Origin: a virus
Reading direction: 5' to 3' (one strand)
DNA length: 64,000 nucleotides
IMG/VR virus record: IMGVR_UViG_3300037515_000251
Coordinates: 7,926-71,925 of that record
Made by a program: the position numbers and the translations under genes. The notes beneath the pieces were generated by a model. That model had not been told where the DNA came from. It saw only the letters and a program-made list of their open reading frames with translations, and made no database searches. Below, piece after piece: positions 6,451-60,080 of the stretch (position 1 is its first letter; each line of letters begins with the position of its first letter).

Positions 6451-9400
6451 ATGCCGAACTCGCTGGAATTTATCCGAAGGGCCAAGCCGGAGCAACTACC
6501 GGTCGGCGCCGGGAATTCGCTCGATTTTATTCGCCAGGCGAAGCCGGGCAATTCCCTGGATTTTATTAAGTCGGCCAAAGCATCCGATCCCGTGTCAGTT
6601 TGGCACGGACAGCCCACGCCCGCAACCGCCGTCTCGACCACGCCCTCGCGCCGGGAACTCGGAGCCGAGCCGGAGGGTTTCTCAATCGGCCGCTTTGCCC
6701 GTGGTTTCTTTCGCCCGCCGGGGGATACACAGGAAGCCGAAAACGAGCGCATCAAACGCGCCGTCGTGGGCACGCCGGAGAAGCCGACATGGTTCACGCC
6801 GGAGACCCCGGAGCGCCCCACGACCCCGGCTGGCTACATGCGCCAAGCCTACCAGGAAGGAGGCGCCCTGGGTGCGGCTGGCGAAGTCGCCAAGATGGGC
6901 GTGCTCGGCCCGCTCTACGGCGCATTCAAGCAGCGCGACACGCCGCCGGTCCAGGCGGGCGAGCTATTCGAGCCGGGCACCGAGGCCCGCGGAATCGCTG
7001 AAGCCGTCTCGCATTTCGCCACGCCGACGAATGCCGCGATCATTGCCGGGGCCTCGACACTGACTGGCATACCCGCGATAGCCCTGAGCGCGTACTTCGC
7101 TACCGACATGGGCGTTGGAGCCTACCAGACTGCCGGGGAGATCGCCAAGGCCAAATCCGAGGGCCGGGAAGACGATGCGCGGGAACTCACCGGGCAGTTG
7201 ATGGTGATGATTCCGGCGGCGCTTGGCGCGGCGGGACATGCGGGCAAGAAAACCGTGGGGATCATCGGCGACCGGAGTGGACGAATCAGAAGCGGAGAGC
7301 CGACGACGCAGCCGCCGGAAATCACGTCGGTTGATGCGCCAGCGGTGCCGCCTTCGCCCATCGCCGCGCGTGCCGAGCCGTTGGCTGGAGAGATGACTGC
7401 TTCCCTCCAGGGTGGCCAGCGCACGCTGCCATTTGTAAGTGAAGCGGACCTTCGCCCTCCGCCGCCGCCAGCACCACCAGGAGTACCGCCGCAAGGTCCA
7501 GGCGGTCCCGCGGTTCCGCCCACGCCGCCGGGAGCGGGCCGTCTACCAGAATCCGAATCCTGGGTTCAGAAGCGCATTGATCTTGAAGACCGGCTCTATC
7601 CCGTCAAGGCGATGGAGAAGATGGCCCGTGACCCGCTGAGCATCGAGGAATCCGCCTACCACCGAATGCGGATGTACCCGGCCGTGTTCGCGCGCGCGCA
7701 AAGCCATCTCGAAACGCTCCGCAAGGGACTCAAGCCGATCCGCCAGACGTTCCGCGAGGATATCAAATCGTTCATCACCGACAAGAAGCCAGCCGATCTG
7801 GTGAGCGAGTTCGAACGCTACGCCACGAACGCCCATGAACTCGACGTGCAGCAGGTCTATCCCGAACGCCAGTTCTCGGGCGGACGCACCCGCGAGCAAA
7901 TCATCCAGGAACAACGCGATATTCAGCAGCGCCTTGGCCCGGACAAGATGGCTCGCCTCAATCAGGCGCAGCGGGCATACTCGGAGTTCGGCCACAGAAT
8001 GCTCGACGAGCTTGTGGACGCTGGCGCATTCAGCCGCGACGTGGCCGCCAGGCTCAAGCAGGCGTATCCGCGCTATGTTCCACTGGAGCGCGTGCTGGCG
8101 GAAGCGGAGGGCGTATTGAAGCACCCCGGAACCGGCGGCGGGAGATCCATGTCGGTTTCGACTCAGAACGTCGTCCGCAAACTCACCGAGCAGGGCAGCG
8201 AACTCGAAATCCAGCGAGCACTTGAAACCATGAGCCGTAAGGCGTTCGACGCATTCTCGCTAGCCGAGCGCAACCGGGCCTCACGGGCCGTCTACGATCT
8301 TGCCGGGAAGGAAGAGTTCGCCGGAACGGTAATCCGCCTGCGGCCGGAAGCCGATCCACCGCCGGGCATGGTGCGTTCGTCGGTGCTGATCGACGGCGTG
8401 CGGCACGATTACGCTGTACCACGGCAAGTCGGCGAAGCGATCCAGGGATTGACCAAAACCCAAGCGGACGTGGTGACGGAAATGGCAGGCAAGAGCGCCC
8501 AAGCCCTCCGCGCCGGTGCAACGACCTGGAGCCTGCCGTTCCTGGGTACGAACATCGCCCGCGATTACTACACGGCCTCGATGCGCTCGCCGGTCGGGTT
8601 CACGCCGCTCGACATGATCGCCGGGTTCTACCACGGCCTCAAGAAAGACGCCCTGTACCACGACTACCTGCGCTCGGGCGCCGCCATGTCGGGGTTCTTT
8701 GAGCAATTCAAGACGCCGCAGCGCGAAGCCCGCCATCTGGTCGAAAGCCAAGCGACCAGGAACATGAAGAAAATCCTGAACCCGTTCGAACTTATGTCCG
8801 AGATCGGCCAGGCTGGCGAGAATGCGGCCCGCATCGGTCTCTACCGGCGCGGCAAGCAGGCTGGACTATCCGAGATGGAAGCCGGTTGGCTCGGGCGCGA
8901 TACGACCGTGGACTTCGCCAAGTCCGGGCGGGTGATTCGCGTCCTGAACATCCTGACGCCGTTCATCAACGCCCGCATTCAGGGCAGCGGCAACATGCTG
9001 CGTACCTTCCGCGATAATCCAGGCGAGGCGAGTTTGACTTGGTGGGCATTGATCGGCGGGCCGTTGACGGCGCTCTACCTCTACAACACGCGCAATCACC
9101 CGGAAGCGTACCGGGACATGCAGCCGTACACCGAGGAAGCCTATTACCCGCTCATTACCGGAGACGAAAAAGACGAAGATGGCAGCTATCCTGGCTTCAA
9201 GTTCCCGATGGAAGAGTTCGGGCAACTCGGGGCGCGCAGTCTGCTGGCGGCCTTGCAGCATCTCGATGAGAACGACCCGGTGGCGCTCAATAAGCTGGCG
9301 AGCCGCATGGGCCTCAGCGGGCGCGAGCTTCAGCCGGGGGAAGGCAAGAAAGCGCCGAGCGCGGCCAAAGTTGCTTTCGAGACGGCGACTGGCCTGCTCC

Positions 9401-10194
9401 CGGTCGATGTCACCCCAGGCGGGGACGTTGGCCTGATGCCAGCCTTGCGCGGGACCGCCAGCGGCCTGCTACCGCCGATTGCCCGCGGAGCGCTCGAAGC
9501 GGGGACCGGAACGAGTTTCTTCACCGGACGCCCGATCGGCAAACTTCAGTCCATGCGCGATTTGCCGGAGGCCGAGAAGTACATCCGGGGCGAGACGCCG
9601 GAATGGCTGGTCAGCGTCGGCAAGTGGACCGACACATCCCCAGAACGGCTGAAGCACATCATCGAATCTCAGTTCGCCACGGTGGGGCGGCTGGCAACGC
9701 GCGGAGAAACGCCCACTGGACAGGTAGCCAAGCGGTTCAGCGGAATCCCCGGCGGGGCCGTCGAGAGCAAAGGCTTCCAGCGCACATCGGAATTGCGGGG
9801 CCAAGCCGCGATGGAGCGCATGGAAACCACCGCGCCGGCCGAACAGGCATTCAAGGAACTCAAGGCGATTCCGAAAGACCAGATGGCGGCGGCGTTCCGC
9901 GAGAAGATCGGGCAACTGCCGCGTGAGTCGCGGTTCGTCCTGCTCGATTTGATCGCCAAGGATGCTGGCGGCCTGACACGCGAGGAACAGAGCCTCAAGG
10001 CGCAGTTGATCGGAGTTCGGGCGAAGCGCCTGCTGGAGAAGATGCAGGAACTACCACAGGATCAGATTCAGGGGAACATCAACCGCTGGGCCAAGGGCGG
10101 CCTGCTCACCAAGGACACGCTCAGAATGATGCGCCAGATTCAAGCAGCGGAGGCTCAGGGGGTCGAGCCGAAGTTGCGTCAGCCGCGCCGGTAG
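6451..10194 (+). CDS. large (1247 aa) virion internal/DNA-ejection-like protein
   Basis: longest ORF in window; N-terminal triple repeat NSL(E/D)FI(R/K)xAKP; proline-rich linker; size and position typical of podovirus/siphovirus internal core or tape-measure-like proteins; no enzymatic motif confirmed. Confidence 0.5.
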   Translation: MPNSLEFIRRAKPEQLPVGAGNSLDFIRQAKPGNSLDFIKSAKASDPVSVWHGQPTPATAVSTTPSRRELGAEPEGFSIGRFARGFFRPPGDTQEAENERIKRAVVGTPEKPTWFTPETPERPTTPAGYMRQAYQEGGALGAAGEVAKMGVLGPLYGAFKQRDTPPVQAGELFEPGTEARGIAEAVSHFATPTNAAIIAGASTLTGIPAIALSAYFATDMGVGAYQTAGEIAKAKSEGREDDARELTGQLMVMIPAALGAAGHAGKKTVGIIGDRSGRIRSGEPTTQPPEITSVDAPAVPPSPIAARAEPLAGEMTASLQGGQRTLPFVSEADLRPPPPPAPPGVPPQGPGGPAVPPTPPGAGRLPESESWVQKRIDLEDRLYPVKAMEKMARDPLSIEESAYHRMRMYPAVFARAQSHLETLRKGLKPIRQTFREDIKSFITDKKPADLVSEFERYATNAHELDVQQVYPERQFSGGRTREQIIQEQRDIQQRLGPDKMARLNQAQRAYSEFGHRMLDELVDAGAFSRDVAARLKQAYPRYVPLERVLAEAEGVLKHPGTGGGRSMSVSTQNVVRKLTEQGSELEIQRALETMSRKAFDAFSLAERNRASRAVYDLAGKEEFAGTVIRLRPEADPPPGMVRSSVLIDGVRHDYAVPRQVGEAIQGLTKTQADVVTEMAGKSAQALRAGATTWSLPFLGTNIARDYYTASMRSPVGFTPLDMIAGFYHGLKKDALYHDYLRSGAAMSGFFEQFKTPQREARHLVESQATRNMKKILNPFELMSEIGQAGENAARIGLYRRGKQAGLSEMEAGWLGRDTTVDFAKSGRVIRVLNILTPFINARIQGSGNMLRTFRDNPGEASLTWWALIGGPLTALYLYNTRNHPEAYRDMQPYTEEAYYPLITGDEKDEDGSYPGFKFPMEEFGQLGARSLLAALQHLDENDPVALNKLASRMGLSGRELQPGEGKKAPSAAKVAFETATGLLPVDVTPGGDVGLMPALRGTASGLLPPIARGALEAGTGTSFFTGRPIGKLQSMRDLPEAEKYIRGETPEWLVSVGKWTDTSPERLKHIIESQFATVGRLATRGETPTGQVAKRFSGIPGGAVESKGFQRTSELRGQAAMERMETTAPAEQAFKELKAIPKDQMAAAFREKIGQLPRESRFVLLDLIAKDAGGLTREEQSLKAQLIGVRAKRLLEKMQELPQDQIQGNINRWAKGGLLTKDTLRMMRQIQAAEAQGVEPKLRQPRR
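6592..6606. repeat. genome-wide palindrome copy inside CDS
   Basis: within 5' region of 1247-aa gene. Confidence 0.85.
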
Positions 10195-10198
10195 AATC

Positions 10199-10217
10199 GG
10201 TGCCAAACTGACACCGA
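10199..10217. repeat. genome-wide palindrome copy (cgGTGCCAAACTGACACcg)
   Basis: between convergent gene ends 10194/10218. Confidence 0.9.
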
Positions 10218-11800: not shown

Positions 11801-12270
11801 CTATCGAAACAACTCCATCTTCGGCGGGATCGCCCGCCGTAAATCGCCCGCATTGTCCAGCTTCCAGAACAGCGCCCCGTCCCGCCGGCAACGCTCGGCG
11901 AAATCCTTCTGTTCCGGCCGCAACTTCTCGCCCGGCCTCTTCGTCTCGATCCAGCCGATCCGCGCATGGGAGCACGTCTCGATCTCGCCGGTCAAGAAAT
12001 TACGCACTGGCCGGTTGGCCGGAATCATCAGCAGCACGTCGGCGGTGCCCTTGGGGGCGCCCTGGCCCCAACGGGTGCGCTTCTTGTCGTCCCCGTCTTT
12101 CTCATCGTCCCCGCCGGGGAACTTAAACAGCCCACAGACGATGTTCGCCCGCCAGATTCCTTCCCATTCCAAGTAGTCGAGCACCGCTTTCTTGAAATCG
12201 CCCTCAAGAGCTTTCGGCGCCCGCCATGGACGGCTGCCCCAGCGGGGCTTGCGGTTGGGGTTAGCGGCCA
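11801..12270 (-). CDS. VRR-NUC domain nuclease (PD-(D/E)xK fold)
   Basis: GTADVLLMIPANRPV…ETKRPGEKLRPEQKDF…GALFWKLDNAGDL matches VRR-NUC pattern (G-x-PD…E-hyd-K…Q); start taken at MAANPNRKPRW just after HNH stop. Confidence 0.55.
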
Positions 12271-12629
12271 TGCTGCTTCCCATGGCAAGGCTGGCAGCGC
12301 CCCTCGATATTGGCAACCCGATCATCCCGCCCATGACTGCGGAACCTCTTGTGATGGGCCTGCAACGGCTTCATTTCACCGCACCGCGCGCAACGCCAGC
12401 CCTGCTGCTCGAACACGAGCTCGGCATTGCGCTTCAGGTTCCAGTCCACGAACTCCTGCGCCATATCTTTCATCTGCTGCGGCGAAGTGCGCTTCGTGCA
12501 GCGCTTCTTGGTGAGTTCCTTCACCACATCGCCAGCATCGTCCAGGGCAGTCAGCGTGAGGCTATCCGGCGGCTGGAAGATGATCGCTATCTCGTATCCG
12601 GTGATCTGGCTGGCGTGGGAGAGAGTCAT
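12261..12629 (-). CDS. HNH endonuclease
   Basis: CxxC…AHHKRFRSHGRDD…N…CQPCH zinc-finger/HNH motif; palindromic motif 8 nt upstream of ATG. Confidence 0.65.
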   Translation of the reverse strand: MTLSHASQITGYEIAIIFQPPDSLTLTALDDAGDVVKELTKKRCTKRTSPQQMKDMAQEFVDWNLKRNAELVFEQQGWRCARCGEMKPLQAHHKRFRSHGRDDRVANIEGRCQPCHGKQHGR

Positions 12630-12636
12630 GGATTCC

Positions 12637-12651
12637 GTGTCAGTTTGACAC
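12637..12651. repeat. genome-wide palindrome copy (GTGTCAGTTTGACAC)
   Basis: 8 nt upstream of HNH ATG (minus strand). Confidence 0.9.
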
Positions 12652-13844
12652 TAGGTTTCGACGGCCGGCGCGTATTCCTGTTCGGTCATCCCCCAACTCG
12701 CGGCCAATGCCGCGCGCGCCGTGCGGTGTTGTGGATTCGCCCATAGAACGGTCGTCTTTCCGGTAGTGTGGCAAGTGACCGATAACAGGCCCCATCCCAC
12801 GTTGCCGCCAAGATCAAGGGTGTAGAGTTCCGCGAGATGCGCGGCATTCTGGTCGATCAACTTTAGGCGCTTCGAAGACAACAGCTTTCCCTTGCCGTAA
12901 CGCTCGATCATCACCCGCCGCACTTCCGCGTTCGGTTCGGCGAAGATGGCATCCTCGGTGATTGTTTCCGGCCTCTCGATCACGTCTTGCGGCACGCGAA
13001 CTCCGTGCCACGCCCAGATATTCCAGCCGTCGTTGAATTTCATTGCTGGCCCGGTCTCGCAATGCAGGCGGTTGATGCTGCGGTCATCAACCTCCGTATG
13101 GACTTCCGGCCGGGCGGACACAAAACACATATTCTCGAAGAAATAAACCCAGCCGCAAGAACGGCAGAGATCGGCCATGATGCAGAGCCTTGTGGACATC
13201 TCGGGTTCATAGCGGACGCCCAAGTGTTCGCAAAATTTGTAAAAGCACACCCAAAAGGAATCGTGCTGGCCCAAAAAATACGTGTCCCGAAGGCTGGCCC
13301 CAAGGCTGTCCCGAAGGCTGTCCCCAAGGTTGTCCCGAAGGTTGTCCCCAAGGCTGTCCAGAAGGCTGGCCCCAAGGCTGTCCCAAAGGCTGTCCCGAAG
13401 GCTGGCCCCAAGGCTGGCCCCAAGGCTGTCCCGAAGGCTGTCCCCAAGGCTGTCCAGAAGGCTGGCCCCAAGGCTGTCCAGAAGGCTGTCCCCAAGGCTG
13501 GCCCGAAGGCTGTCCCCAAGGCTGTCCCCAAGGCTGGCCCCAAGGCTGTCCCCAAGGCTGGCCCGAAGGCTGGCCCCAAGGCTGTCCCAAAGGCTGTCCC
13601 GAAGGCTGGCCCCTCGGATCGCCGCAATGCCAATCTGGCACGTCAGCGGAGAATCGCACCATACGATTACCGGTGGACCCTTTCCGATGGCGCGATAGGC
13701 CCGATTGATCGCGTCCCTGGCGAGAATTTGATCGCACGGGCCAGCCGCCATCCCAATTCGCAGCCACTCGTCGCGCCATTTGGGAATACTTGCTTCCTGC
13801 TCTGGCGTGAGGGCTTCAATCCGCAACGCTTTTAATGACGGCAT
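12651..13844 (-). CDS. tetrapeptide-repeat protein ((S-L-[GRWL]-[DA])n, ~30 copies) with unique N- and C-terminal domains
   Basis: 397-aa ORF; central ~356 nt is a 12-nt tandem DNA repeat (ggctgtccccaa-type) encoding SLGD/SLRA/SLWD units; overlapping plus-strand and other-frame ORFs are frame artefacts of the repeat. Confidence 0.55.
   Translation of the reverse strand: MPSLKALRIEALTPEQEASIPKWRDEWLRIGMAAGPCDQILARDAINRAYRAIGKGPPVIVWCDSPLTCQIGIAAIRGASLRDSLWDSLGASLRASLGDSLGASLGDSLGDSLRASLGDSLLDSLGASLLDSLGDSLRDSLGASLGASLRDSLWDSLGASLLDSLGDNLRDNLGDSLRDSLGASLRDTYFLGQHDSFWVCFYKFCEHLGVRYEPEMSTRLCIMADLCRSCGWVYFFENMCFVSARPEVHTEVDDRSINRLHCETGPAMKFNDGWNIWAWHGVRVPQDVIERPETITEDAIFAEPNAEVRRVMIERYGKGKLLSSKRLKLIDQNAAHLAELYTLDLGGNVGWGLLSVTCHTTGKTTVLWANPQHRTARAALAASWGMTEQEYAPAVET
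13265..13620. repeat. 12-nt tandem repeat array (~30 units) inside CDS 12651-13844
   Basis: ggctg(g/t)cccc(a/g)aa units repeated head-to-tail; period 12 = 4 codons. Confidence 0.8.
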
Positions 13845-14208
13845 CGGGGGTTTCCTCTGTCTGAATCCGTGCTTCCCAGATACCGTTGAAGCCGGGCACA
13901 GGGATGAGCAGCACGTCGCCCTGCCGCTGTATTGTTGGCCGCGCAGGATCTAGCAGTAACGGCCCATGCCGATCCTCTCCCGGCTCGACGGGAGCCAGAT
14001 TCGACGGGTCTTTGCCGTGGATGATCCGCACCGTCACGTCGTCGCCAACGACGCGGATCAGGGCGCGGGAATCGAGTTCGTACATCTCGACGAGATGTTC
14101 GTCTTGCGTAGCCACGGCGTGCATGTGGCCGGTGACTTCACCGAGGGCCAGCGGGCGCAAGGGAATGCGCTTGGCTCCAGGTGGTACGTGCGCTGAAGTG
14201 TTCTTCAT
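13816..14208 (-). CDS. hypothetical protein
   Basis: 130-aa ORF; palindromic motif and GGAGA-like SD ~20 nt upstream. Confidence 0.4.
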   Translation of the reverse strand: MKNTSAHVPPGAKRIPLRPLALGEVTGHMHAVATQDEHLVEMYELDSRALIRVVGDDVTVRIIHGKDPSNLAPVEPGEDRHGPLLLDPARPTIQRQGDVLLIPVPGFNGIWEARIQTEETPDAVIKSVAD

Positions 14209-14235
14209 GGTGTTCTCCTTTGTCTCAGATTAACG

Positions 14236-14250
14236 GTGTCAAACTGACAC
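14236..14250. repeat. genome-wide palindrome copy (GTGTCAAACTGACAC)
   Basis: ~27 nt upstream of minus-strand start at 14208. Confidence 0.9.
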
Positions 14251-14502: not shown

Positions 14503-14801
14503 TAACTAGCGAGTTGGGCTTCGATGGCCTCGATCTCTTTTCGCAGCGCAGTCTTCTTCTCGGTCGGCGTCTTGAGCAGTTCGAGTTGCTGCCGGGCCTG
14601 CCGCTGGTGCCGGATGAGATCGGCCCGAATGCGGGATTTGATTTCGACGTTCAGCGTCTCGACCGAATGCCCCACCCATTCGGGGGGATCGATCTTGAGG
14701 CGCTTATACTCGTCGGTAAGGCTCTTCGCAAACGCACTCAGGGACACCAAGCCGTCGAGTTCAAGGCGGTCAACATTGACCTGCCGGAGTTGTTCAAGCA
14801 T
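14502..14801 (-). CDS. hypothetical coiled-coil protein
   Basis: 99-aa ORF, start overlaps stop of upstream gene. Confidence 0.35.
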   Translation of the reverse strand: MLEQLRQVNVDRLELDGLVSLSAFAKSLTDEYKRLKIDPPEWVGHSVETLNVEIKSRIRADLIRHQRQARQQLELLKTPTEKKTALRKEIEAIEAQLAS

Positions 14802-16254
14802 ATGCCATCTCCTTTTTCGGTTGTTTCAACACGACTTCGAGCCGCAACAGCGGCGCGGCCATCACTTCGTCGATCAGGCTGTAGCGGTTGGTCCGCATGG
14901 TCTGAACGAGGTTCGGAATCGAATACTGATCGACTCGCTGGTTCGTCAGATCGAACATCTGAAGGTCCAATCCGGCGTGCTGCATGGCCGCTCCGAGATA
15001 GTTCGGGTCGCCCGCCAGCCGGTAGAGATATACCGGAACATCTTTGCCGGTTTTCTGCGAATACTTCTGGAACTCGACAGGGAACGCGGGGACGTTGTTC
15101 TCGCCGCCATCCGAAACGATGGCGATTCCGTCAATCTCTATCCCGCGCTCCATGATGTACTTCAACCCGCAGCCGATCGAGGTTCCGCCTTGCGCCGTGA
15201 CGAATCGCGTGAGGGTGTTGATCTCGTCGAGCGTCTTGCCGGTCACGTCGAGGTAGGTCGGCATCGTGTTGAAGAACACGAGATGGACCTTGCCGGCCGC
15301 CAGCCGTGCCAATACCCCGGCGATCTCGCGGGCGGCGGTAATCGCCGTGTGCATGGACGCGCTTTGATCGGCCAGTACAAGCCAGTCGCCCTCGACACTG
15401 GCTTTCGACAACTTCGCTTCCTGGACGGCCTTCACCTTCTCGCGCAATCCTTCGTCGTCGAGGGATTCGACCGCCTTGGTCAGCTTCAACGCCGACGATT
15501 TGCCGTCCCGCGCCTTCGACAGCGCAGCCTCAAGGGCGGAGCGCAGGGCCGGATTACTCTTGACGCCAAGCCGTTCCAGCATCTTCATGTTGTTGCCGAG
15601 CTCCGCCGGAGTCATCCGGTCGATCAGCGCAAGCAGAACATCGGTATCCTTCAGCCGCGGCCCGATCGCGCCGGCCGCGATCAGAAACGGGATACGGTGC
15701 TCGATAACGGTTGCCGCAGCTTCCGCCGGCGGAAGGTTCTTCAGGTTCGCAATGACGGCGAACACCGAGTTGGGCGGATACGAGCGCTCAAATAGAATCT
15801 TGGCCGCGAACGCCGCTGGCTTGACGTGCAGCATCGCGTAAAGCGACTTCAGGGCGGCCCGGTGCTGGACCGCTGTACGGTTCCATTGCTTGCGATCAGC
15901 TTCAAGAGAACGCAGGATTGATTCCCCGAGGCGCCGTAGCCGCCGGGACCATCGCGCTTTCGTGCCATCGCAACGCAGTGCCCGAATGAATTCGCGCGGC
16001 GGAAGCAACGCCAGATGCGCGGCGGCATTATCGGTGAATTCCGGCGCACTGGGAGATTCCAGCGCAACCAGCGGCAACGCCACCTTGCTGTCCCGCACGG
16101 TGCCCTTGATGCGGTTCCACGAGATCAGGTGAGCGTAGAACTCGGGATCGCTGGCGTGTGCTTCGCGGGCGATCGGGAAGTAGGATGCCAGATCGCGGTG
16201 AGACGACTTGGCGAGATTCGCAATGATTTGCTGCTTGGTGATGCCGGTTTCCAC
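14794..16254 (-). CDS. rsr: Ro60/Rsr-like protein (helical TROVE-like N-terminal region + C-terminal vWA domain with MIDAS motif)
   Basis: C-terminus LADQSASM…GGTSIGCGL…IVSDGGENN…YSQKTGKDVPVYLY parallels Ro60 vWA (ALDVSASM…GGTDCSLPM…FTDNETFAG…YRKKMDIPAKLIV); ~300-aa alpha-helical N-terminal domain; 486 aa. Confidence 0.55.
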   Translation of the reverse strand: METGITKQQIIANLAKSSHRDLASYFPIAREAHASDPEFYAHLISWNRIKGTVRDSKVALPLVALESPSAPEFTDNAAAHLALLPPREFIRALRCDGTKARWSRRLRRLGESILRSLEADRKQWNRTAVQHRAALKSLYAMLHVKPAAFAAKILFERSYPPNSVFAVIANLKNLPPAEAAATVIEHRIPFLIAAGAIGPRLKDTDVLLALIDRMTPAELGNNMKMLERLGVKSNPALRSALEAALSKARDGKSSALKLTKAVESLDDEGLREKVKAVQEAKLSKASVEGDWLVLADQSASMHTAITAAREIAGVLARLAAGKVHLVFFNTMPTYLDVTGKTLDEINTLTRFVTAQGGTSIGCGLKYIMERGIEIDGIAIVSDGGENNVPAFPVEFQKYSQKTGKDVPVYLYRLAGDPNYLGAAMQHAGLDLQMFDLTNQRVDQYSIPNLVQTMRTNRYSLIDEVMAAPLLRLEVVLKQPKKEMAYA

Positions 16255-19026: not shown

Positions 19027-19508
19027 TGGACAAGAGCCATGTACTCACGCACCCTGCCAGTCTCCACGTTGCGCTGGTGGAACTTCTTCGGCTCGCGCCC
19101 CAGTCCGTCGCAGAACTCGCAGTTCTCGGCCTCCCGGCGTAGCACGGCGAGCCGCGTCATGTCGCTTGCCGACCAAGCCTTTTCATCGGCAGCGGTGCGG
19201 ATGTCGAACTCGGTTGGGGTCCACTCCCCGGACGTGGCGAAGTGCTCGACGCAGGCTGCGATTGCCTCGGCATTGGTGCAGTAGCGTAGCACGGCATCGA
19301 TCAGCGTCTTGCGGATGGCGGGATCAGTGGGCCAGTTCTTGAGAGTAGCCCAACGGGTAATCCCATTGATCGCTTCCTGTTCGGCGGGACTGAGTTTGCG
19401 CTTCTCAGGCGCCGAGGCTTTGGATGTACTCGGCGATCCCGTCCGTCTTGCTTGGTTTGGCTTGGCGGCGCTGCTGTTCAGTAGTGAAGAAACACTCGAT
19501 AATGGCAT
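18972..19508 (-). CDS. hypothetical protein
   Basis: 178-aa ORF with CxxC…CxC cluster. Confidence 0.3.
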   Translation of the reverse strand: MPLSSVSSLLNSSAAKPNQARRTGSPSTSKASAPEKRKLSPAEQEAINGITRWATLKNWPTDPAIRKTLIDAVLRYCTNAEAIAACVEHFATSGEWTPTEFDIRTAADEKAWSASDMTRLAVLRREAENCEFCDGLGREPKKFHQRNVETGRVREYMALVHCRCPYGQLRAKVEGQGA

Positions 19509-20510
19509 CGGCTGAAACTCCTTTCATGTGATCGGCGGCATGTTTTTCGAACGTCCCAATCAACCTCGTCTCGAAACCTGGCTTGTCTTGCAGGTACATC
19601 GCTTCGAGCAGCGCGATCTTCCAGGCTGGCAGGTGAAGATCAACCCACTGCACAACACCGTTTCCGGGCGGCAATGCGCGTAAACGGCAGGCATTCACCA
19701 CCGAGATGATGACCCCGGCTTGCGGGCGCGGATCCAGCTTCGTGTCAGTTTGGCACCGATTGGGCCGGGAGAACGCCTCGGATGGCTGGCGCGATCTGGT
19801 AACCCCGCCATTCGGCCGACGCGGACGCCCTGGGACCCCGACCAGGGCCAGCACGTCGTCGGTCACATTCCCGCCGTCCCCGGAGCGCTCGTCGAGTAGC
19901 GCCGCGATCCGCTCCCGCAACTCCGGCGAATCAGCCTCGGTGAGCAGCCGCCGCTTCGACCCCGTGGTGATCCGTAGCGACAGCCCCAGGCTCCGCGCTT
20001 CGTCCGCCGCCCACTTGTCGATGGGGCGCTCCATTTCCGCGGAGTTCTGTTTTGGTAAGGGGGTAGGGGGATTATCTCTTTCTTTAGTATTTTCTTTAAG
20101 AGAAGAATCTATAAGGACGGGATCGGGGTTGACCGTCGCATGGGTGCGACTGTCACCGTCGCATGGGTGCGACTGTCGAGCGGAATCGACCGTCGCATGG
20201 GTGCGACTGTCGAACAGGATCGAGTAGCTGACTGGGAAGCCTCCGCCGTTCGGACTTTTGGCGATCAAGCCGCGCTCAATGAGTGAGTTTACTGCTCGGT
20301 GAAAGGTGGCGACGTTGATCTGCGACCACCCACAAATCGTGTCCCTGTCAACCGTGACGACTTGACGCTGGAACCCGATCGTGAGCCGGTAGATCGACAG
20401 GTAGACCTTCATCTCCGAGGACGATAAATCGCCCATGATCTGCTCGATGAAGTCGTGATTGAGTTGGCTGAAGTTGCCTGAAGGCGGCCGGTTCGGCCTG
20501 GATTTCATGG
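19405..20510 (-). CDS. replication-initiator-like protein (winged-helix N-terminus) with origin-like iterons inside its coding sequence
   Basis: probable start MKSRPNRPP at ~20510 (GAGG upstream); N-terminal MKVYLSIYRLTIGFQ…INVATFHRAVNSLIERGLI helix-turn-helix-like; ORF reads through palindromic motif at 19742 without a stop, so 3' boundary uncertain. Confidence 0.4.
19742..19756. repeat. genome-wide palindrome copy (GTGTCAGTTTGGCAC)
   Basis: inside/at 3' end of initiator-like ORF. Confidence 0.9.
20132..20211. repeat. three 23-bp direct repeats (accgtcgcatgggtgcgactgtc; iteron-like) next to an AT-rich patch (20075-20115): candidate origin of replication
   Basis: copies at 20132-20154, 20155-20177, 20189-20211; flanking ttatctctttctttagtattttctttaagagaagaatctataagg is strongly AT-rich for this genome. 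Confidence 0.6.
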
Positions 20511-20745
20511 CGTGCCTCGCTTTACGGAAGTGTTCTGTCGCCGGTACCCGCGGCAGACAGAGAACAGTGTACGCCAAGACGAGCGAGAACCGCAAGCCTA
20601 AAAGGGTGCGGCCCGGACTTGTGGGTACGCCGGGCCGCTGCGAACTTCCAGTAAAGGAGGTTGTTTTTGTCGGTTTGTGTCCTGAGTATAGCACGGCAGT
20701 CAAGGAAAAGTCCCGGCCCGGAGGAGAGACGGGCCGGGCACCGCA

Positions 20746-25061: not shown

Positions 25062-25076
25062 GTGTCAAACTGACAC
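25062..25076. repeat. genome-wide palindrome copy
   Basis: 11 nt upstream of NTase ATG (25050), SD GGAGA between. Confidence 0.9.
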
Positions 25077-25078
25077 TG

Positions 25079-26305
25079 CTAAAACGGCGGTTCCTCTTCA
25101 AACTCTTCCGGCGGCTCGTCCCCCGGCTCCCGGCCCAGGAACCGCTCCGTCTCGGCTACCGGGTCCATGGCGTCCACGAACTCATCGGCGCTCTCGGCTT
25201 TCCCGCCCTGCGTGGCGACCGCCTTGCTCGCCGCGCCGTAGTCGTCGGGGTTGACGCCTTGGACGACATCGACCCAAGGATTAGCGGCCCGGACATGATC
25301 GGGGATTGGGGCGGAGTTGGCCTGCGGCGCCGGCGCGGGAGCCTGCGGCTTCGTGGCGGGCTGAGCGGGTGGCTCTGGTTCTGGTTCCGGCTTTGGAGCG
25401 CCCGCCATCTTGCGGGCCGTGGACTTCGCCTTGGCCGCGTCCCGGTTTTTCTTGTAGACTTCCAGCCACGGGTCCAGAATCTCGTTCACGGCTTTCTTTC
25501 GGCCCGCTTCGTCGAGTGAATCCCACTTGGCCGACAACTCGGCGATGTGTTTATTGGCGACCGCCTGCTCCACGTTGACCTTGTGGGAGGCGTCCCGAAT
25601 AGACTGCATGATCTCGGCGGGCACATTCGATTCCGGGGCGGTGAGCACCGCCGTCGCCATGCGCTGCTGGAGGACTTCGGGCGGCGCATCGTTGTCCATC
25701 TGGTGCAACTCTTCGGCGATGTAGAGGCCGCGCAGGTTGCGCGGGAATGCGCGGCGCAATCCGCCTGCTTCAGCGCATTTGGCGATCTGTCCCTCCGGCA
25801 TTGTGTTCCAGAGACCGGCAGGTTCGCGCCGGTTCGTCTGCCTATTGAAATACGATTGGCAATAACTCGAAAATTTAACGGTATGAACCAGTGGTTCGGT
25901 GAACCCGTGACGCAGGATTTCAATTTTGGCGGCGGCGGGAGCCTCGTCTTGAAGCCACACGTCTTTCCAGACGCCATCTTTGCCGCACCAGAACGGCCCG
26001 CGCTGGCCCGCGTACTGGCCCGTGCTTTCGGCCTGTGTGCGTAGGCCGTCAATGCCAACTTGGATTGTCGGAACATCCCGCTGCTCCTTGGCGCTGAACC
26101 GTTTGACAAGATGGATTTCCCGCCGGAAGGGATCGAACCCAGTGGCCTTGCAGACCGCCAGGAAATAGTCCAGTTCTTCATCGGTCGCACCCTTGGCGAT
26201 GGTGTCCTTGATGACCTGAACCTGCTTCGGGGTAAAGCTGAGTTCGACTGGCTTGGATACGGCTTGCGGCTGGATCACCGCGACTGCTTTCGTTTCTTTG
26301 CTCAT
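25079..26305 (-). CDS. recT: RecT-family single-strand annealing recombinase
   Basis: FLAVCKATGFDPFRREIHLV…IQVGIDGLRTQAESTGQYAG core typical of RecT/Bet; acidic proline-rich C-terminal tail. Confidence 0.65.
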   Translation of the reverse strand: MSKETKAVAVIQPQAVSKPVELSFTPKQVQVIKDTIAKGATDEELDYFLAVCKATGFDPFRREIHLVKRFSAKEQRDVPTIQVGIDGLRTQAESTGQYAGQRGPFWCGKDGVWKDVWLQDEAPAAAKIEILRHGFTEPLVHTVKFSSYCQSYFNRQTNRREPAGLWNTMPEGQIAKCAEAGGLRRAFPRNLRGLYIAEELHQMDNDAPPEVLQQRMATAVLTAPESNVPAEIMQSIRDASHKVNVEQAVANKHIAELSAKWDSLDEAGRKKAVNEILDPWLEVYKKNRDAAKAKSTARKMAGAPKPEPEPEPPAQPATKPQAPAPAPQANSAPIPDHVRAANPWVDVVQGVNPDDYGAASKAVATQGGKAESADEFVDAMDPVAETERFLGREPGDEPPEEFEEEPPF

Positions 26306-34722: not shown

Positions 34723-34737
34723 TTGTTCCGCCGTGTC
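34723..34737. repeat. genome-wide palindrome copy
   Basis: intergenic 34680-34751. Confidence 0.9.
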
Positions 34738-34750
34738 AAACTGACACGGG

Positions 34751-36879: not shown

Positions 36880-37700
36880 TATGCTCGCCAGTCATAATGC
36901 AATACTAGCATTGCATTTCGGGGCTAGTCAAGCGGATTATGATAATTATTGGCGATTCGGCGAAGATTTTACAATTAGTACACTCGTGTTGACAGTAGAG
37001 TGTCAGAAAAATCTGACAGGTGTCAGAAAAATCTGACAGTTTGGGGATTACGACTGTAAGGATTTATGACAGTCGGAGGTCTTTCCCTTGGGGTGTGAGA
37101 CACTCGTTAGACACTTTATGGCGCAAAGTGTCTCATGTGAGACAGTCTATTGCTCGGCCCTCCGAATCAGCACTATCGGCGCCGCCGGCAGCAGTGATGG
37201 CAGGCCCGCCGCAGCGTCAGGACCGCACCAGGTCGAATCGCTGGCAGGGTTGATAATGTCGTATAACATGTATTGTGTAAACTTCTGAAATCGAAACTAA
37301 CTACTGTGCTGTCATACAGATACAGCGATATGCCGGAATTATGGAACACCCAGGAAAATAGGCAACCACAACATGTTGTGGTCAGTGCTACTGGTGGAGT
37401 GCTGCTGGTCGAGCGGTCGAGCGCGTGGCCGGAGCTGGTGGAAGTGGACGAGTCGCGGCCCGTGCGGTGGGTGTGGTGGCCAGGCTCGGTCGGTGGCGCG
37501 GCTGGCAGTGGTGGACCTCGTGCGCGACCCCCATGCCCCCTTTTCACAGGAATGGGTTCCCATCTGCCCGTGGTATCACGATTCTCCGTCCACATACATC
37601 CCGATTCCTGCGACCATGGTACACGAGTTGTATTTTCAACGACTTACGGGAGGCAAAAACATGGTGCGATTATGGTACGGGTTTATGCGATAATGGTAGA
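36880..37700. promoter_or_regulatory. low-GC divergent control region between minus-strand early block and plus-strand regulator block; contains TTGACA box and several operator-like palindromes
   Basis: AATGCAAT-N6-ATTGCATT (36886-36907); TTGACA (36999-37004); tandem TGTCAGA-AAAA-TCTGACA at 37011-37028 and 37031-37048; GTGAGACAC … GTGTCTCA … TGAGACAG inverted set (37095-37145); no convincing ORF across 36900-37690. Confidence 0.6.
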
Positions 37701-53614: not shown

Positions 53615-54091
53615 ATGAACAAGCCGATCGACACCATTGAAGCCCGTGGTAGTTTAGGGGGGCAACCTTTTCACGGCAATGAATCTGGGCTTTGCTGGCT
53701 GATTGAAGACGCCACGGGAGAGTGCCGGATCGCCCACAAGCCGTGCCGGTTTCACCGTGGCGGTGGATATCACGGTGGGGTACTGCCTGAATTCTGCCCG
53801 CTCCGCGAGGGGCCGGTAACAATTTCTCTTCATTCCTGGCACTACGATGAGACTGTCCAGCGGGACAACCCAACCGTGGAGCAACGCATCGCGGCGATCC
53901 CAATCGAAGCGCAAATCGACGAGGCTACGGAGGCTGAGTTGCGTAAGGCCGGAAATCCGTTTTGGCGGCTGGACGACGAGTTGGAGAGGGAAGGCAAGTA
54001 CGCGCAATTCGCCGCCGAAACCAGACACAAGGTTGCCTGCGGCCTCCATGACCGCAACCTGGAGCAGTTGATCTCAAAGAGTGCCGTCTAA
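53615..54091 (+). CDS. hypothetical protein
   Basis: 158-aa ORF abutting terminase gene. Confidence 0.4.
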   Translation: MNKPIDTIEARGSLGGQPFHGNESGLCWLIEDATGECRIAHKPCRFHRGGGYHGGVLPEFCPLREGPVTISLHSWHYDETVQRDNPTVEQRIAAIPIEAQIDEATEAELRKAGNPFWRLDDELEREGKYAQFAAETRHKVACGLHDRNLEQLISKSAV

Positions 54092-56366
54092 GCCTAAATA
54101 CCGCGCCGAGAAGCTGTCCGCCGATGGGGTCCGTAAGCGGCAGGCGTGGACGCGCCCGCCAGAGGCGATCGTTCTCGACTCGCTCACCTACGACTCGCTC
54201 AAGCACGAACTCCACAACAAGCCAGTCTGGGAAGCGAACGCCTGCTACCTCTGCACAGGCCATCAGGTTCTTTCCCGCTACACGGCGCTGCTCCATTTCC
54301 AGTGGATGCACATCGACATCCTCAACGGCGGCCCGGCCACGCCCGAGGACGAAGCCGGTATCCGCAAGCTGGTAGGGGCGATCCGGCAGGAGTATGGGGT
54401 CGATGCGCCCTGGCCGAAGGGCGATCCGGTGATCTGTCCGGCCTGCGGAGGGACCGGGAAGGGGCCGCAGCATTTGGCGCTGACGACGTTGGCGGATGAA
54501 ATCTTCTTCGGCGGCGAAAAGGGCGGCGGCAAGACGTCCGCCATGACCTTTTGGATGGTCCACGGCAACCCGGATCAGCCGCAGTATGACGACCAGGGAC
54601 GGGCGATCTGGCACAACCAGGCGTATTATCATCACCCGGCGTACCGCGGCTTGGTGGTCCGCAAAAACCAGGAGGATTTGAGCGGCTGGCTGAAATACGC
54701 CATCCCGTTCTACCAGAAACTCGGGGCGGAATACCTGAAAGCCGAGGGCACATTTGAATGGGCTTCGGGCGCCGTGATCTGGACCGGACACCTGGCGGAC
54801 GCCAAATCGTATCAGAAGTACATGGGCAAGCCCGAGCTTCACCGGCTGGCTATCGAGGAAATCACGCAGTTGCCAGAGGAAGAGTTGTACGAGCAGATGC
54901 GCTCGAACGTGCGGACGACGCACCCGGAGTTGCACCCGCAGATTTTCAACTCGGCGAACCCGATCGGACCAGGTAAGCAGTGGGTCGCCGACCGTTTCGT
55001 GCGGATGAAAGACGAAAACGGCAATCGCATTCCGCGCAAGACGCTGGCGACATTCTTCGTGCCTAACCCGTTCACCGGCAAGAAAATGCCCCGCACGCGC
55101 ATCTTCATCCCGGCCGGCCTGCGCGACAACCCGCACATCGACAAGGGCTATCTGGGCGTGCTGGCCGGCCTGTCGCCGCGGCTGCAAAAAGCGTACCTCC
55201 AGGGCGATTGGGAGTCGATGGAAGGGCAATACTTCCACACGTTCCGCGATCCAGATGCACAGAACTTGGCTGCATACAACGAACCCGAGAATGCCTGCCA
55301 TGTGATTAAGCGCCGCAAGGAACCGCCGTTCTACCCGAAACTGGACCACTGGTGGGCGCGGCAAATGGGCGGCGACTGGGGTAGCGAGCATGAAGCATCG
55401 TACCACTGGGGCTGCCGCGATCCGTACACGTCCCGGCTGCACGTCTACCGGGAGTTTGTGTGCTCGAAGACGACAGCGGTATCGCAGGGCGTCCGCATTG
55501 CCGAGTTGAGCCGCGACGACCTGGAGCGGCTACCGGATCACTCGATGACGCTGTGGTACTCGCGAGATGCCTTCATTCAGCGTTCGAACGACGAAGGAAT
55601 GACCAGTCTGGTCGAATTGCTTGCTCGTGGAATCGCCATGGTGCTCGGCCCGGACGCGATCTCGGTTCCGGGATTACAGCAGCTTGCGGCCAGCACCCAA
55701 GATTATTCCTGGGACGACCGGCCCCGGTTCCGCCAGGAATTCAATGAGTTTCAGCAGTCGTTGGCAATCCAGAAGAGTTCGGGCATCACAATCCGCATGT
55801 GCAATTCCAACCGCGTACTCGGCTGGAACTACATTCGGGAAGGTTTCGAGTGGCTGGACCCCGTGGCGGCCGATGGCGAGTACAGCCAGGAGCTTGAGCT
55901 GAAGATCAGCCGCGAGTTCGGCATGGTCGAGGCCGAGCGCTACCGCAACCGCTTCAACCGCCAGAAGGTAGTTCGCCCGTGGCTTCAGATTTGGGATACC
56001 TGCCCGCGGCTGCGGGCGGCCATTCCGCGTGCGCAAGCTGACGACCGCAACCCCGAGGATGTGAGCAAGAAGCACTTCACGGGGGCCGACGTCATCGATA
56101 GTTTTCGCTACCTTGTAGTTGGCTTCCGCGACGACCCTTCGCCGATTCCGCCGGAAGTCCAGAAGATGCACGCGATCGATGCGTTCAAGGCGACTAATCC
56201 GAACCACACCTTCGATGACCTGGTGCGGTTCAACGAAGCATTGGAGCGGGCCGAAAAAGCGACTGGCGGGCCGTTGCATTATGCTACATTAGGACGCAGG
56301 GCGACCATGGCGGGCCGGATTCTGAAGCAGGCATGGGGCCGCCGGCCGCAAGGGAGTTTGCAGTGA
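54081..56366 (+). CDS. terL: terminase large subunit (ATPase + nuclease) with N-terminal Zn-ribbon extension
   Basis: Walker A-like GGEKGGGKTSAM, Walker B LAIEEITQL, RNaseH-like C-terminal half (…DVIDSFRY…); CPACGGTG upstream of ATPase. Confidence 0.65.
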   Translation: MPSKPKYRAEKLSADGVRKRQAWTRPPEAIVLDSLTYDSLKHELHNKPVWEANACYLCTGHQVLSRYTALLHFQWMHIDILNGGPATPEDEAGIRKLVGAIRQEYGVDAPWPKGDPVICPACGGTGKGPQHLALTTLADEIFFGGEKGGGKTSAMTFWMVHGNPDQPQYDDQGRAIWHNQAYYHHPAYRGLVVRKNQEDLSGWLKYAIPFYQKLGAEYLKAEGTFEWASGAVIWTGHLADAKSYQKYMGKPELHRLAIEEITQLPEEELYEQMRSNVRTTHPELHPQIFNSANPIGPGKQWVADRFVRMKDENGNRIPRKTLATFFVPNPFTGKKMPRTRIFIPAGLRDNPHIDKGYLGVLAGLSPRLQKAYLQGDWESMEGQYFHTFRDPDAQNLAAYNEPENACHVIKRRKEPPFYPKLDHWWARQMGGDWGSEHEASYHWGCRDPYTSRLHVYREFVCSKTTAVSQGVRIAELSRDDLERLPDHSMTLWYSRDAFIQRSNDEGMTSLVELLARGIAMVLGPDAISVPGLQQLAASTQDYSWDDRPRFRQEFNEFQQSLAIQKSSGITIRMCNSNRVLGWNYIREGFEWLDPVAADGEYSQELELKISREFGMVEAERYRNRFNRQKVVRPWLQIWDTCPRLRAAIPRAQADDRNPEDVSKKHFTGADVIDSFRYLVVGFRDDPSPIPPEVQKMHAIDAFKATNPNHTFDDLVRFNEALERAEKATGGPLHYATLGRRATMAGRILKQAWGRRPQGSLQ

Positions 56367-59946: not shown

Positions 59947-59961
59947 CGTGTCAAACTGACA
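59947..59961. repeat. genome-wide palindrome copy
   Basis: between portal-like and scaffold-like genes. Confidence 0.9.
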
Positions 59962-60080
59962 CCGACTTGCCTTTACATGTAAAAAAAGCGTACAGTATCA
60001 GTGAGCCGGATATCCCGTATTCCGTACCCCGTAGGGCCGACAGGCCCATGTAGGCTCCCGATGAGATACCGAGAGAACAC

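Follow-up and report, generated by a model that had tools for sequence, protein, structure and literature searches.

Why does a phage gene carry, in the middle of its coding sequence, a head-to-tail array of 12-nucleotide repeats, and does the encoded protein change in length as repeats are gained or lost? The question is raised by a minus-strand gene (12651-13844) in a 64,000-nucleotide stretch of the IMG/VR virus record IMGVR_UViG_3300037515_000251 (the window, meaning here the whole stretch that was analysed), which is a phage genome. The gene is an open reading frame of 397 codons with a TAG stop codon at 12651-12653. Its product, assigned to Pfam family PF20530 (DUF6745) and to phrog_31813, consists of an N-terminal domain outside any Pfam model (amino acids 1-79; 13608-13844), an in-frame minisatellite of 27 units of 12 nucleotides encoding the tetrapeptide [S/N]L[G/R/W/L][D/A] (amino acids 80-187; 13284-13607), and a C-terminal DUF6745 domain of 210 amino acids (188-397; 12654-13283). 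The explanation that we favour, and consider reasonably probable, is that the array is a slippage-driven, length-variable in-frame insert, probably folded as a helical hairpin, in a DUF6745 protein that is paired with a small histidine-rich partner.

The repeat array is genuine and well outside what chance would produce. A single array was called by Tandem Repeats Finder, spanning 13283-13613 with a period of 12, 27.6 copies, 85% matches and a score of 466 and without insertions or deletions; in the coding frame this corresponds to exactly 27 units. The unit on the coding strand is A[G/A]C CTT [C/G/T][G/T]G G[A/C]C, and eight distinct tetrapeptides are encoded: SLGD, SLGA, SLRD, SLRA, SLWD, SLLD, NLRD and NLGD. 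Differences between units are confined to positions 2, 7, 8 and 11 of the 12, each of them changes an amino acid, and all four third-codon positions are invariant across the window's array. With 18 Asp and 8 Arg residues, the array is net acidic. The first-pass annotation, made from the sequence alone, had described about 30 perfect repeats at 13265-13620 between non-repetitive N- and C-terminal parts, the latter rich in Cys and Trp. Its account of the array, its location and its non-repetitive flanks was correct, and its view of the C-terminal domain was fair (8 Cys and 8 Trp in 210 amino acids); the limits were drawn slightly too wide, the units number 27 and are not perfect copies of one another, and the unit that it quoted, ggctgtccccaa, is the plus-strand (antisense) reading of a gene that lies on the minus strand. 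A plus-strand open reading frame at 12987-13835, with PKAV repeats, was ruled out as a real gene; the minus-strand frame is the real gene because the conserved, Pfam-supported flanks sit in that frame.

The length of the array differs between genomes that are otherwise the same. A 71.8-kb contig (L001) from JGI sample 3300037714 covers positions 2651-23844 of the window with zero mismatches outside the array over 21 kb, and has 10 units in place of the window's 27, a difference of 204 nucleotides (17 units). A third allele (sample 3300037722) has 15 units. The N- and C-terminal flanks of the 27-, 15- and 10-unit alleles are 100% identical, and each shorter array can be traced as a colinear path through the longer one, with unit order kept. 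In eight further clusters of homologues at 90% identity, unit counts vary (for example 14/35/48, 18/21/31 and 15/22/23) and flank lengths are constant. Three paralogues on a single 2.6-Mb Dehalococcoidia contig (L017, L019 and L031) carry 31, 30 and 33 units, respectively, of the form SV[R/G/W/E][D/A]. The array gains and loses whole 12-nucleotide units, and no other site in this phage genome changes nearly as fast. As a repeat inside a coding sequence whose copy number differs between near-identical assembled genomes, it is a variable-number tandem repeat. The reading frame is always kept because whole 12-nucleotide units are gained or lost and, 12 being a multiple of three, the result is a series of length variants rather than an on/off switch; only length differs among the alleles, none of which is frameshifted as on/off phase variation would have it. 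The first-pass annotation had predicted that protein length would be hypervariable among isolates and had proposed counting repeats in related genomes; among the assemblies compared here, that prediction is supported. A search for variation among isolate genomes, using close relatives of gp37 and gp38 of the Mycobacterium phage prophiGD102-1, returned only that record itself. Hairpins were ruled out as the driver of slippage because folding of the single-stranded array is poorer than that of shuffled sequence (z = +9.8).

The array follows a rule that is shared by a large family. The protein matches PF20530 with 101.2 bits (cut-off 27; E 6.1e-29) over amino acids 191-397 and profile positions 10-206 of 206, and phrog_31813 with E 8.7e-22. 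A database search found 312 homologues. Members of the family occur in many bacterial phyla, in a Mycobacterium abscessus prophage and in Microcystis phages of the Ma-LMM01 group. The best 120 homologues from the database search, which are 278 to 573 amino acids long, all carry PF20530, and all 120 possess arrays of 7 to 74 units (median 23.5) with no preference of parity (63 even, 57 odd). Among these 120, the first position of the unit is mostly Ser (0.68) or Asn (0.15), the second Leu (0.86) or Val (0.07), the third Gly (0.30), Arg (0.29) or Trp (0.18), and the fourth Asp (0.39) or Ala (0.32). Gln occupies the first position in the Mycobacterium abscessus prophage, which has 46 units of QL[G/R/W][D/G], as well as in Paraburkholderia nemoris and elsewhere. 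We define the tetrapeptide-array subfamily as proteins with the N-terminal domain, at least seven units of [S/N/Q][L/V]xx, and DUF6745 in that order; the window's gene is a member. In the N-terminal domain, Gly31 is invariant among 81 aligned homologues, and Leu12, Thr13, Asp38, Arg39, Trp62 and Pro66 are at least 90% conserved. The Pfam model of DUF6745 describes the C-terminal domain only, without the N-terminal domain, the array, its hypervariability or the partner gene. At the position of the array, some relatives have a degenerate version of it or up to about 650 amino acids of unique sequence; one, encoded on a phage-like contig (L088, 4342-7167), is a DUF6745 protein of 941 amino acids with about 650 non-repetitive residues in place of the array. 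No mention of DUF6745, PF20530 or the repeat strings was found in the literature searched.

Codon usage was analysed in 353 units, which belong to 13 arrays of phages and of several phyla. The third codon of the unit is GGG in 135 units, TGG in 87, AGG in 66, CGG in 35, GAG in 23 and something else in 7. Every one of the 135 glycines at this position is encoded by GGG, a codon that accounts for only 27% of the glycines in the remainder of these genes. The codons for Ser (AGC, TCG or TCC) and for Leu or Val (CTT, CTC, CTG, GTG or GTC) vary from one lineage to the next and are uniform within each array, and synonymous variation inside arrays is nearly nil. This pattern points to concerted evolution of the unit within each lineage under selection on the peptide. 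No codon family other than NGG can encode Gly, Arg and Trp under such homogenization, which would explain the use of GGG, CGG/AGG and TGG.

Structure prediction with AlphaFold2 from 81 sequences gave a full-length model with a mean predicted local distance difference test score (pLDDT) of 85.5 and a predicted template-modelling score (pTM) of 0.70. The N-terminal and DUF6745 domains are at pLDDT of about 95 (amino acids 11-70 at about 94-98), and the DUF6745 domain modelled alone reached 91.4. For the array, the model shows a pair of antiparallel helices of the same length (66-124 and 127-185; pLDDT 56-74). This equality, together with the pTM, suggests a hairpin that would bring the N- and C-terminal domains together, and the degenerate or unique inserts found at the same place in relatives fit a variable insert in a conserved body. 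The prediction that the first-pass annotation had called for thus returned a helical hairpin at modest confidence and not a β-solenoid. When the full model was compared by Foldseek with the PDB, the best E value was 0.87, no solved structural relative being found; a comparison with BFVD matched only other DUF6745 proteins. Sequence-profile searches of the PDB with the DUF6745 protein and its partner gave nothing significant.

The gene immediately upstream (13816-14208, minus strand) encodes a small His-rich protein of 130 amino acids, and its 3' end overlaps the start of the DUF6745 gene by 29 nucleotides. Shine-Dalgarno-like sequences can be read 6 nucleotides 5' of the partner's ATG (AAGGAG, 14215-14220) and, within the partner's coding sequence, 8 nucleotides 5' of the ATG of the DUF6745 gene (GAGGA, 13853-13857). 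By sequence, the partner belongs to the phrog_27831 family (E 7e-5, compared with 2e-17 to 7e-19 for typical members). To sample the neighbourhood of the DUF6745 gene, GTDB species genomes were scanned with an alignment of ten C-terminal domain sequences; from 214 confirmed matches in many phyla the best 80 were kept, and partner homologues were sought by iterative searches of six-frame open reading frames in about 80 genome loci. In about 65 of 82 loci, one lies directly beside the DUF6745 gene and in the same orientation; the usual position is upstream, often with an overlap, but in some actinomycete and Dehalococcoidia lineages it is downstream; no other neighbour is broadly conserved in the 82 loci. 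The two genes form a cassette, since the partner is adjacent in most loci across phyla. The Dehalococcoidia paralogues are copies of the whole cassette with 95-98% identity over about 2 kb, and three copies so nearly identical suggest that it belongs to a repeated mobile segment.

Typical partners of about 105 amino acids have the motifs RQGDV, GExTGHxH, HEEH and QREY. Apart from the C-terminal Asp, a single Glu and four His residues are invariant in the family, and these suggest a metal site. The window's partner keeps the invariant G, E, G, H, H, H, H and G and the C-terminal D. It lacks the typical N-terminal RQGDV strand, and a later insertion, QRQGDVLLIPVP, resembles a relocated or circularly permuted copy of that strand. 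No match to the partner was found in Pfam, NCBIfam, PADLOC or the PDB. At least 7,900 stand-alone homologues of the partner exist; of three that were looked up starting from the partner, two had a DUF6745 gene immediately downstream, both in phage-like early regions. The same pair is present in a Manatee Spring phage and in the Mycobacterium phage prophiGD102-1, where gp37/gp38 adjoin a RepA-like initiator. The pair's early-region neighbours are YqaJ, RecT and DnaB in one other locus (L086), and HNH, VRR-NUC, O-like replication and RecT proteins in the window.

These results can be assembled into the following scheme. A conserved N-terminal domain of about 75 amino acids and a DUF6745 domain of about 210 have a highly variable insert between them, which in this subfamily is a 12-nucleotide minisatellite encoding [S/N/Q]-[L/V]-[G/R/W]-[D/A]. 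Its length would change by replication slippage or by unequal recombination between units, and the units would be homogenized at the DNA level within each lineage, with selection on the peptide fixing Ser and Leu/Val and maintaining a mixture of Gly, Arg and Trp at the third position and of Asp and Ala at the fourth. The array is most likely a two-helix antiparallel hairpin, to judge from the model, projecting from a body made of the N- and C-terminal domains; the number of units would then set the length of the stalk, at about 3 Å per unit and about 8-9 nm for the window's allele. The DUF6745 protein is presumably co-produced with the four-histidine, probably metal-binding partner and probably acts with it. 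The cassette would serve phages and other mobile DNA as an early or accessory module, most plausibly with a role in phage-host conflict.

Several points weigh against this scheme. All of the copy-number comparisons rest on assemblies, mostly short-read metagenomes, in which contigs often break within arrays and tandem arrays can collapse. The hairpin is predicted at a pLDDT of only 56-74, a strict period of 4.0 residues is ill-suited to a canonical coiled coil, and the Ser/Gly/Asp-rich composition disfavours helix, so that the array could be flexible. Packing of the N- and C-terminal domains is suggested by the pTM and the equal helix lengths. The partner can occur without DUF6745, being solitary in one of the three look-ups mentioned above. 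No fold, family or literature match that gives a biochemical function was obtained; among the known anti-phage defence systems of PADLOC 2.0, the partner had no match and the DUF6745 protein only a non-significant one, and it is genomic context that points to phage-host conflict.

The alternative that survives best, which we hold to be possible but rather unlikely, is that the array is a selfish, slippage-prone minisatellite lodged in a tolerant linker, its length meaningless and its peptide flexible or disordered. The extreme variability of the insert, which ranges from perfect arrays through degenerate ones to some 650 residues of unique sequence, is what such a permissive loop would produce, as are the lack of any preferred length or parity across 7-74 units and the moderate pLDDT of a chain rich in Ser, Gly and Asp. 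A tolerant linker does not account for the near invariance of the first two positions and the NGG-encoded Gly, Arg or Trp at the third across at least 11 independent arrays, for the near absence of synonymous variation although different arrays use different Ser and Leu codons, or for the retention of an array of at least seven units in every one of the 120 best homologues.

It is very unlikely that the true array length is fixed and that the differences were created by repeat collapse or mis-joining in short-read assemblies. All three close alleles come from metagenome assemblies, many members of the homologue clusters are fragments that start or end inside the array, and the 324-nucleotide array of the window exceeds a typical short read. 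The 10-unit allele (120 nucleotides), however, could be spanned by single reads; alleles always differ by whole units, with a unit order that follows the longer allele, nine clusters assembled in different projects and by different assemblers repeat the pattern, and the Dehalococcoidia paralogues differ in unit number within one contig.

That the repeats act at the DNA level, as iterons, protein-binding sites or a former of G-quadruplexes, with an incidental peptide, appears more improbable still. The gene does lie in a block of replication and recombination genes, the coding strand of the array has 24 runs of at least three G residues at a spacing of 12 nucleotides, and all six reading frames are open across the array. 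Against this, the peptide stays conserved across lineages that use different Ser and Leu/Val codons, this is the frame in which the flanks encode a conserved protein, the single strand folds less well than shuffles, and a better candidate for iterons is found elsewhere in the window (20132-20211). A CRISPR-like (clustered regularly interspaced short palindromic repeat) array was also considered and set aside. A target of a diversity-generating retroelement was set aside as well: the variable sites take G, C, T and A and are not adenine-specific, and no conserved neighbour other than the partner was seen in the 82 loci, the window not having been scanned explicitly for a reverse transcriptase. 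The β-helix or solenoid spacer that the first-pass annotation had envisaged, here in a form related to pentapeptide-repeat proteins, is barely tenable, for although the motif with its central Leu resembles the pentapeptide consensus minus one residue, the period is 4 and not 5, no pentapeptide-repeat Pfam model matches even at E values up to 1, and AlphaFold2 gives only helices here.

As a length-variable, probably helical insert, the array can be compared with several known repeat systems. The specificity subunits (HsdS) of type IC restriction systems such as EcoR124I/II have two or three copies of a TAEL tetrapeptide repeat in a central conserved region, where they form a helical spacer, and unequal crossing-over or slippage alters their copy number and the geometry of the protein. 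The array resembles these in being a 12-bp in-frame repeat that encodes a tetrapeptide in a changeable number of copies, but it has 7 to 74 copies rather than two or three, the protein has no target-recognition domains (no Methylase_S Pfam match) and is not truly related to HsdS in sequence (the PADLOC Specificity_I match is non-significant, with E 0.088 and 10 bits, and covers only the repeat), and array length in the hairpin model would alter a stalk and not the distance between domains. Pentapeptide-repeat proteins such as Qnr and MfpA, with the consensus [S,T,A,V][D,N][L,F][S,T,R][G], share short tandem repeats, a central Leu with small or polar neighbours, and net acidity, but they have a period of five, differ in their Pfam matches, and form a right-handed β-helix where the array is predicted to be helical. 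Bacterial surface and virulence proteins with variable numbers of in-frame repeats, such as the alpha C protein, M proteins and Mycoplasma Vlp, likewise change copy number between near-identical strains by slippage or recombination; in contrast, the window's protein has no signal peptide apparent by inspection of its N-terminus, is encoded in a phage early region, and has a four-residue unit with variability fixed at two sites and an array type conserved across phyla. The repeats of transcription activator-like (TAL) effectors are 34-residue units with two variable residues each, and the array is similar in that its near-identical units vary at two adjacent residues (positions 3 and 4), but its units have four residues, its copy number is unstable, and it shows no evidence of a ligand code.

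One association may help to direct work on function. In seven Micromonosporaceae genomes and on a Deinococcus plasmid, the pair adjoins, and is convergent with, a complete STM4011-STM4015 cluster; on a Streptomyces plasmid, the stretch retrieved shows only STM4013-STM4015 beside the pair (loci with these neighbours: L042, L048, L059, L063, L073, L079, L080, L089 and L090). The cluster encodes two radical S-adenosylmethionine (SAM) proteins, a hydrolase, STM4014, and one or two proteins of the STM4015 family. By eye, the Deinococcus STM4015 sequence looks leucine-rich-repeat-like, and in Deinococcus an N-terminus of similar appearance is joined to the C-terminal half of DUF6745. The literature searched gave only incidental mentions of STM4011-STM4015 and described no function, and no homologue of the cluster is present in the window. 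The association is a lead, not evidence of function.

In the window, the DUF6745 gene lies within a long minus-strand block of replication, recombination and accessory genes and not among the structural genes. Phage genes of the window include those for a large terminase (54081-56366), a RecT-like protein (25079-26305), VRR-NUC, HNH and DUF5131 proteins, and an O-like replication protein. Directly downstream of the cassette on the minus strand are an HNH endonuclease frame (12261-12629) and a VRR-NUC-like frame (11801-12334); their longest versions overlap by 74 nucleotides, so that one of the two start codons is probably further downstream. A protein of 1247 amino acids (6451-10194) is of the polyvalent type, with an LPD38 match in its copy on L001 (which is identical to the window at this locus), and a VWA/CoxE-like protein of 486 amino acids (14794-16254) is encoded close to the cassette; both kinds are typical of accessory regions of mobile elements. 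Scans for sigma-70 promoters and intrinsic terminators around the cassette found none above shuffled background. Megablast of window positions 1-25000 against GenBank phages gave no match, an exact-sequence look-up of the 397-residue product gave no record, and a peptide-pattern search of IMG/VR and JGI metagenome contigs confirmed no close relatives.

The cassette is bracketed by two copies of a palindrome that is dispersed in the genome, GTGTCA-N3-TGACAC. The upstream copy (14236-14250) is located 3 nucleotides past the stop codon of the preceding gene; the downstream copy, GTGTCAGTTTGACAC at 12637-12651, overlaps the TAG of the DUF6745 gene by one base, as the first-pass annotation had observed. 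The window contains 20 sites with at most one mismatch to GTGTCA-[AAC/GTT]-TGACAC (0.09 expected), among them also 10200-10214, 25062-25076, 34733-34747 and 59948-59962. Seventeen of the 20 are intergenic, about ten lie within about 10 nucleotides of a stop codon, a few overlap one, and both strand blocks have copies, a distribution suggestive of a hairpin at 3' ends or between cistrons, or of a binding site, that marks the limits of gene cassettes. At 20132-20211, within the gene for the O-like replication protein (19405-20703), ACCGTCGCATGGGTGCGACTGTC occurs three times, each copy with an inverted repeat GTCGCA/TGCGAC; these copies are iteron-like and could mark a replication origin, as in lambda. 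At the divergent junction of the minus- and plus-strand blocks (36985-37040), a TTGACA hexamer is followed by two tandem 20-nucleotide palindromes (GTGTCAGAAAAATCTGACAG) that are situated just past an AT-rich stretch and have half-sites in common with the dispersed palindrome; this looks like an operator and promoter region.

A more far-reaching proposal, which we consider improbable, is that the array is a functional, rapidly tunable element and more than a tolerated repeat: a variable-length acidic stalk, molecular ruler or mimic that, through its length and its pattern of G/R/W and D/A, would determine the specificity of DUF6745 and its partner in an arms race between phage and host. If so, the target could be systems such as the STM4011-STM4015 radical-SAM cluster that lies beside chromosomal and plasmid copies, and the exclusive use of NGG would be the mark of selection for Gly, Arg and Trp units that can be interconverted in one step, a form of built-in evolvability.

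Variation of repeat number within a reading frame is already known as a way of varying proteins quickly; what is new here, as far as could be checked, is a tetrapeptide rule that holds across the family, the restriction to NGG, the partner gene and the association with STM4011-STM4015. The DUF6745 array proteins are an uncharacterized family spread over phages and many bacterial phyla, and their cassette is carried in the early regions of unrelated phages, in bacterial chromosomes and on plasmids. For these phages, the array is in practice a convenient strain-typing marker, and it is a likely site of assembly breaks. The family offers a clean natural system for concerted evolution under a peptide-level constraint, and array length, partner binding and metal content, and the STM4011-STM4015 link are handles on two uncharacterized families.

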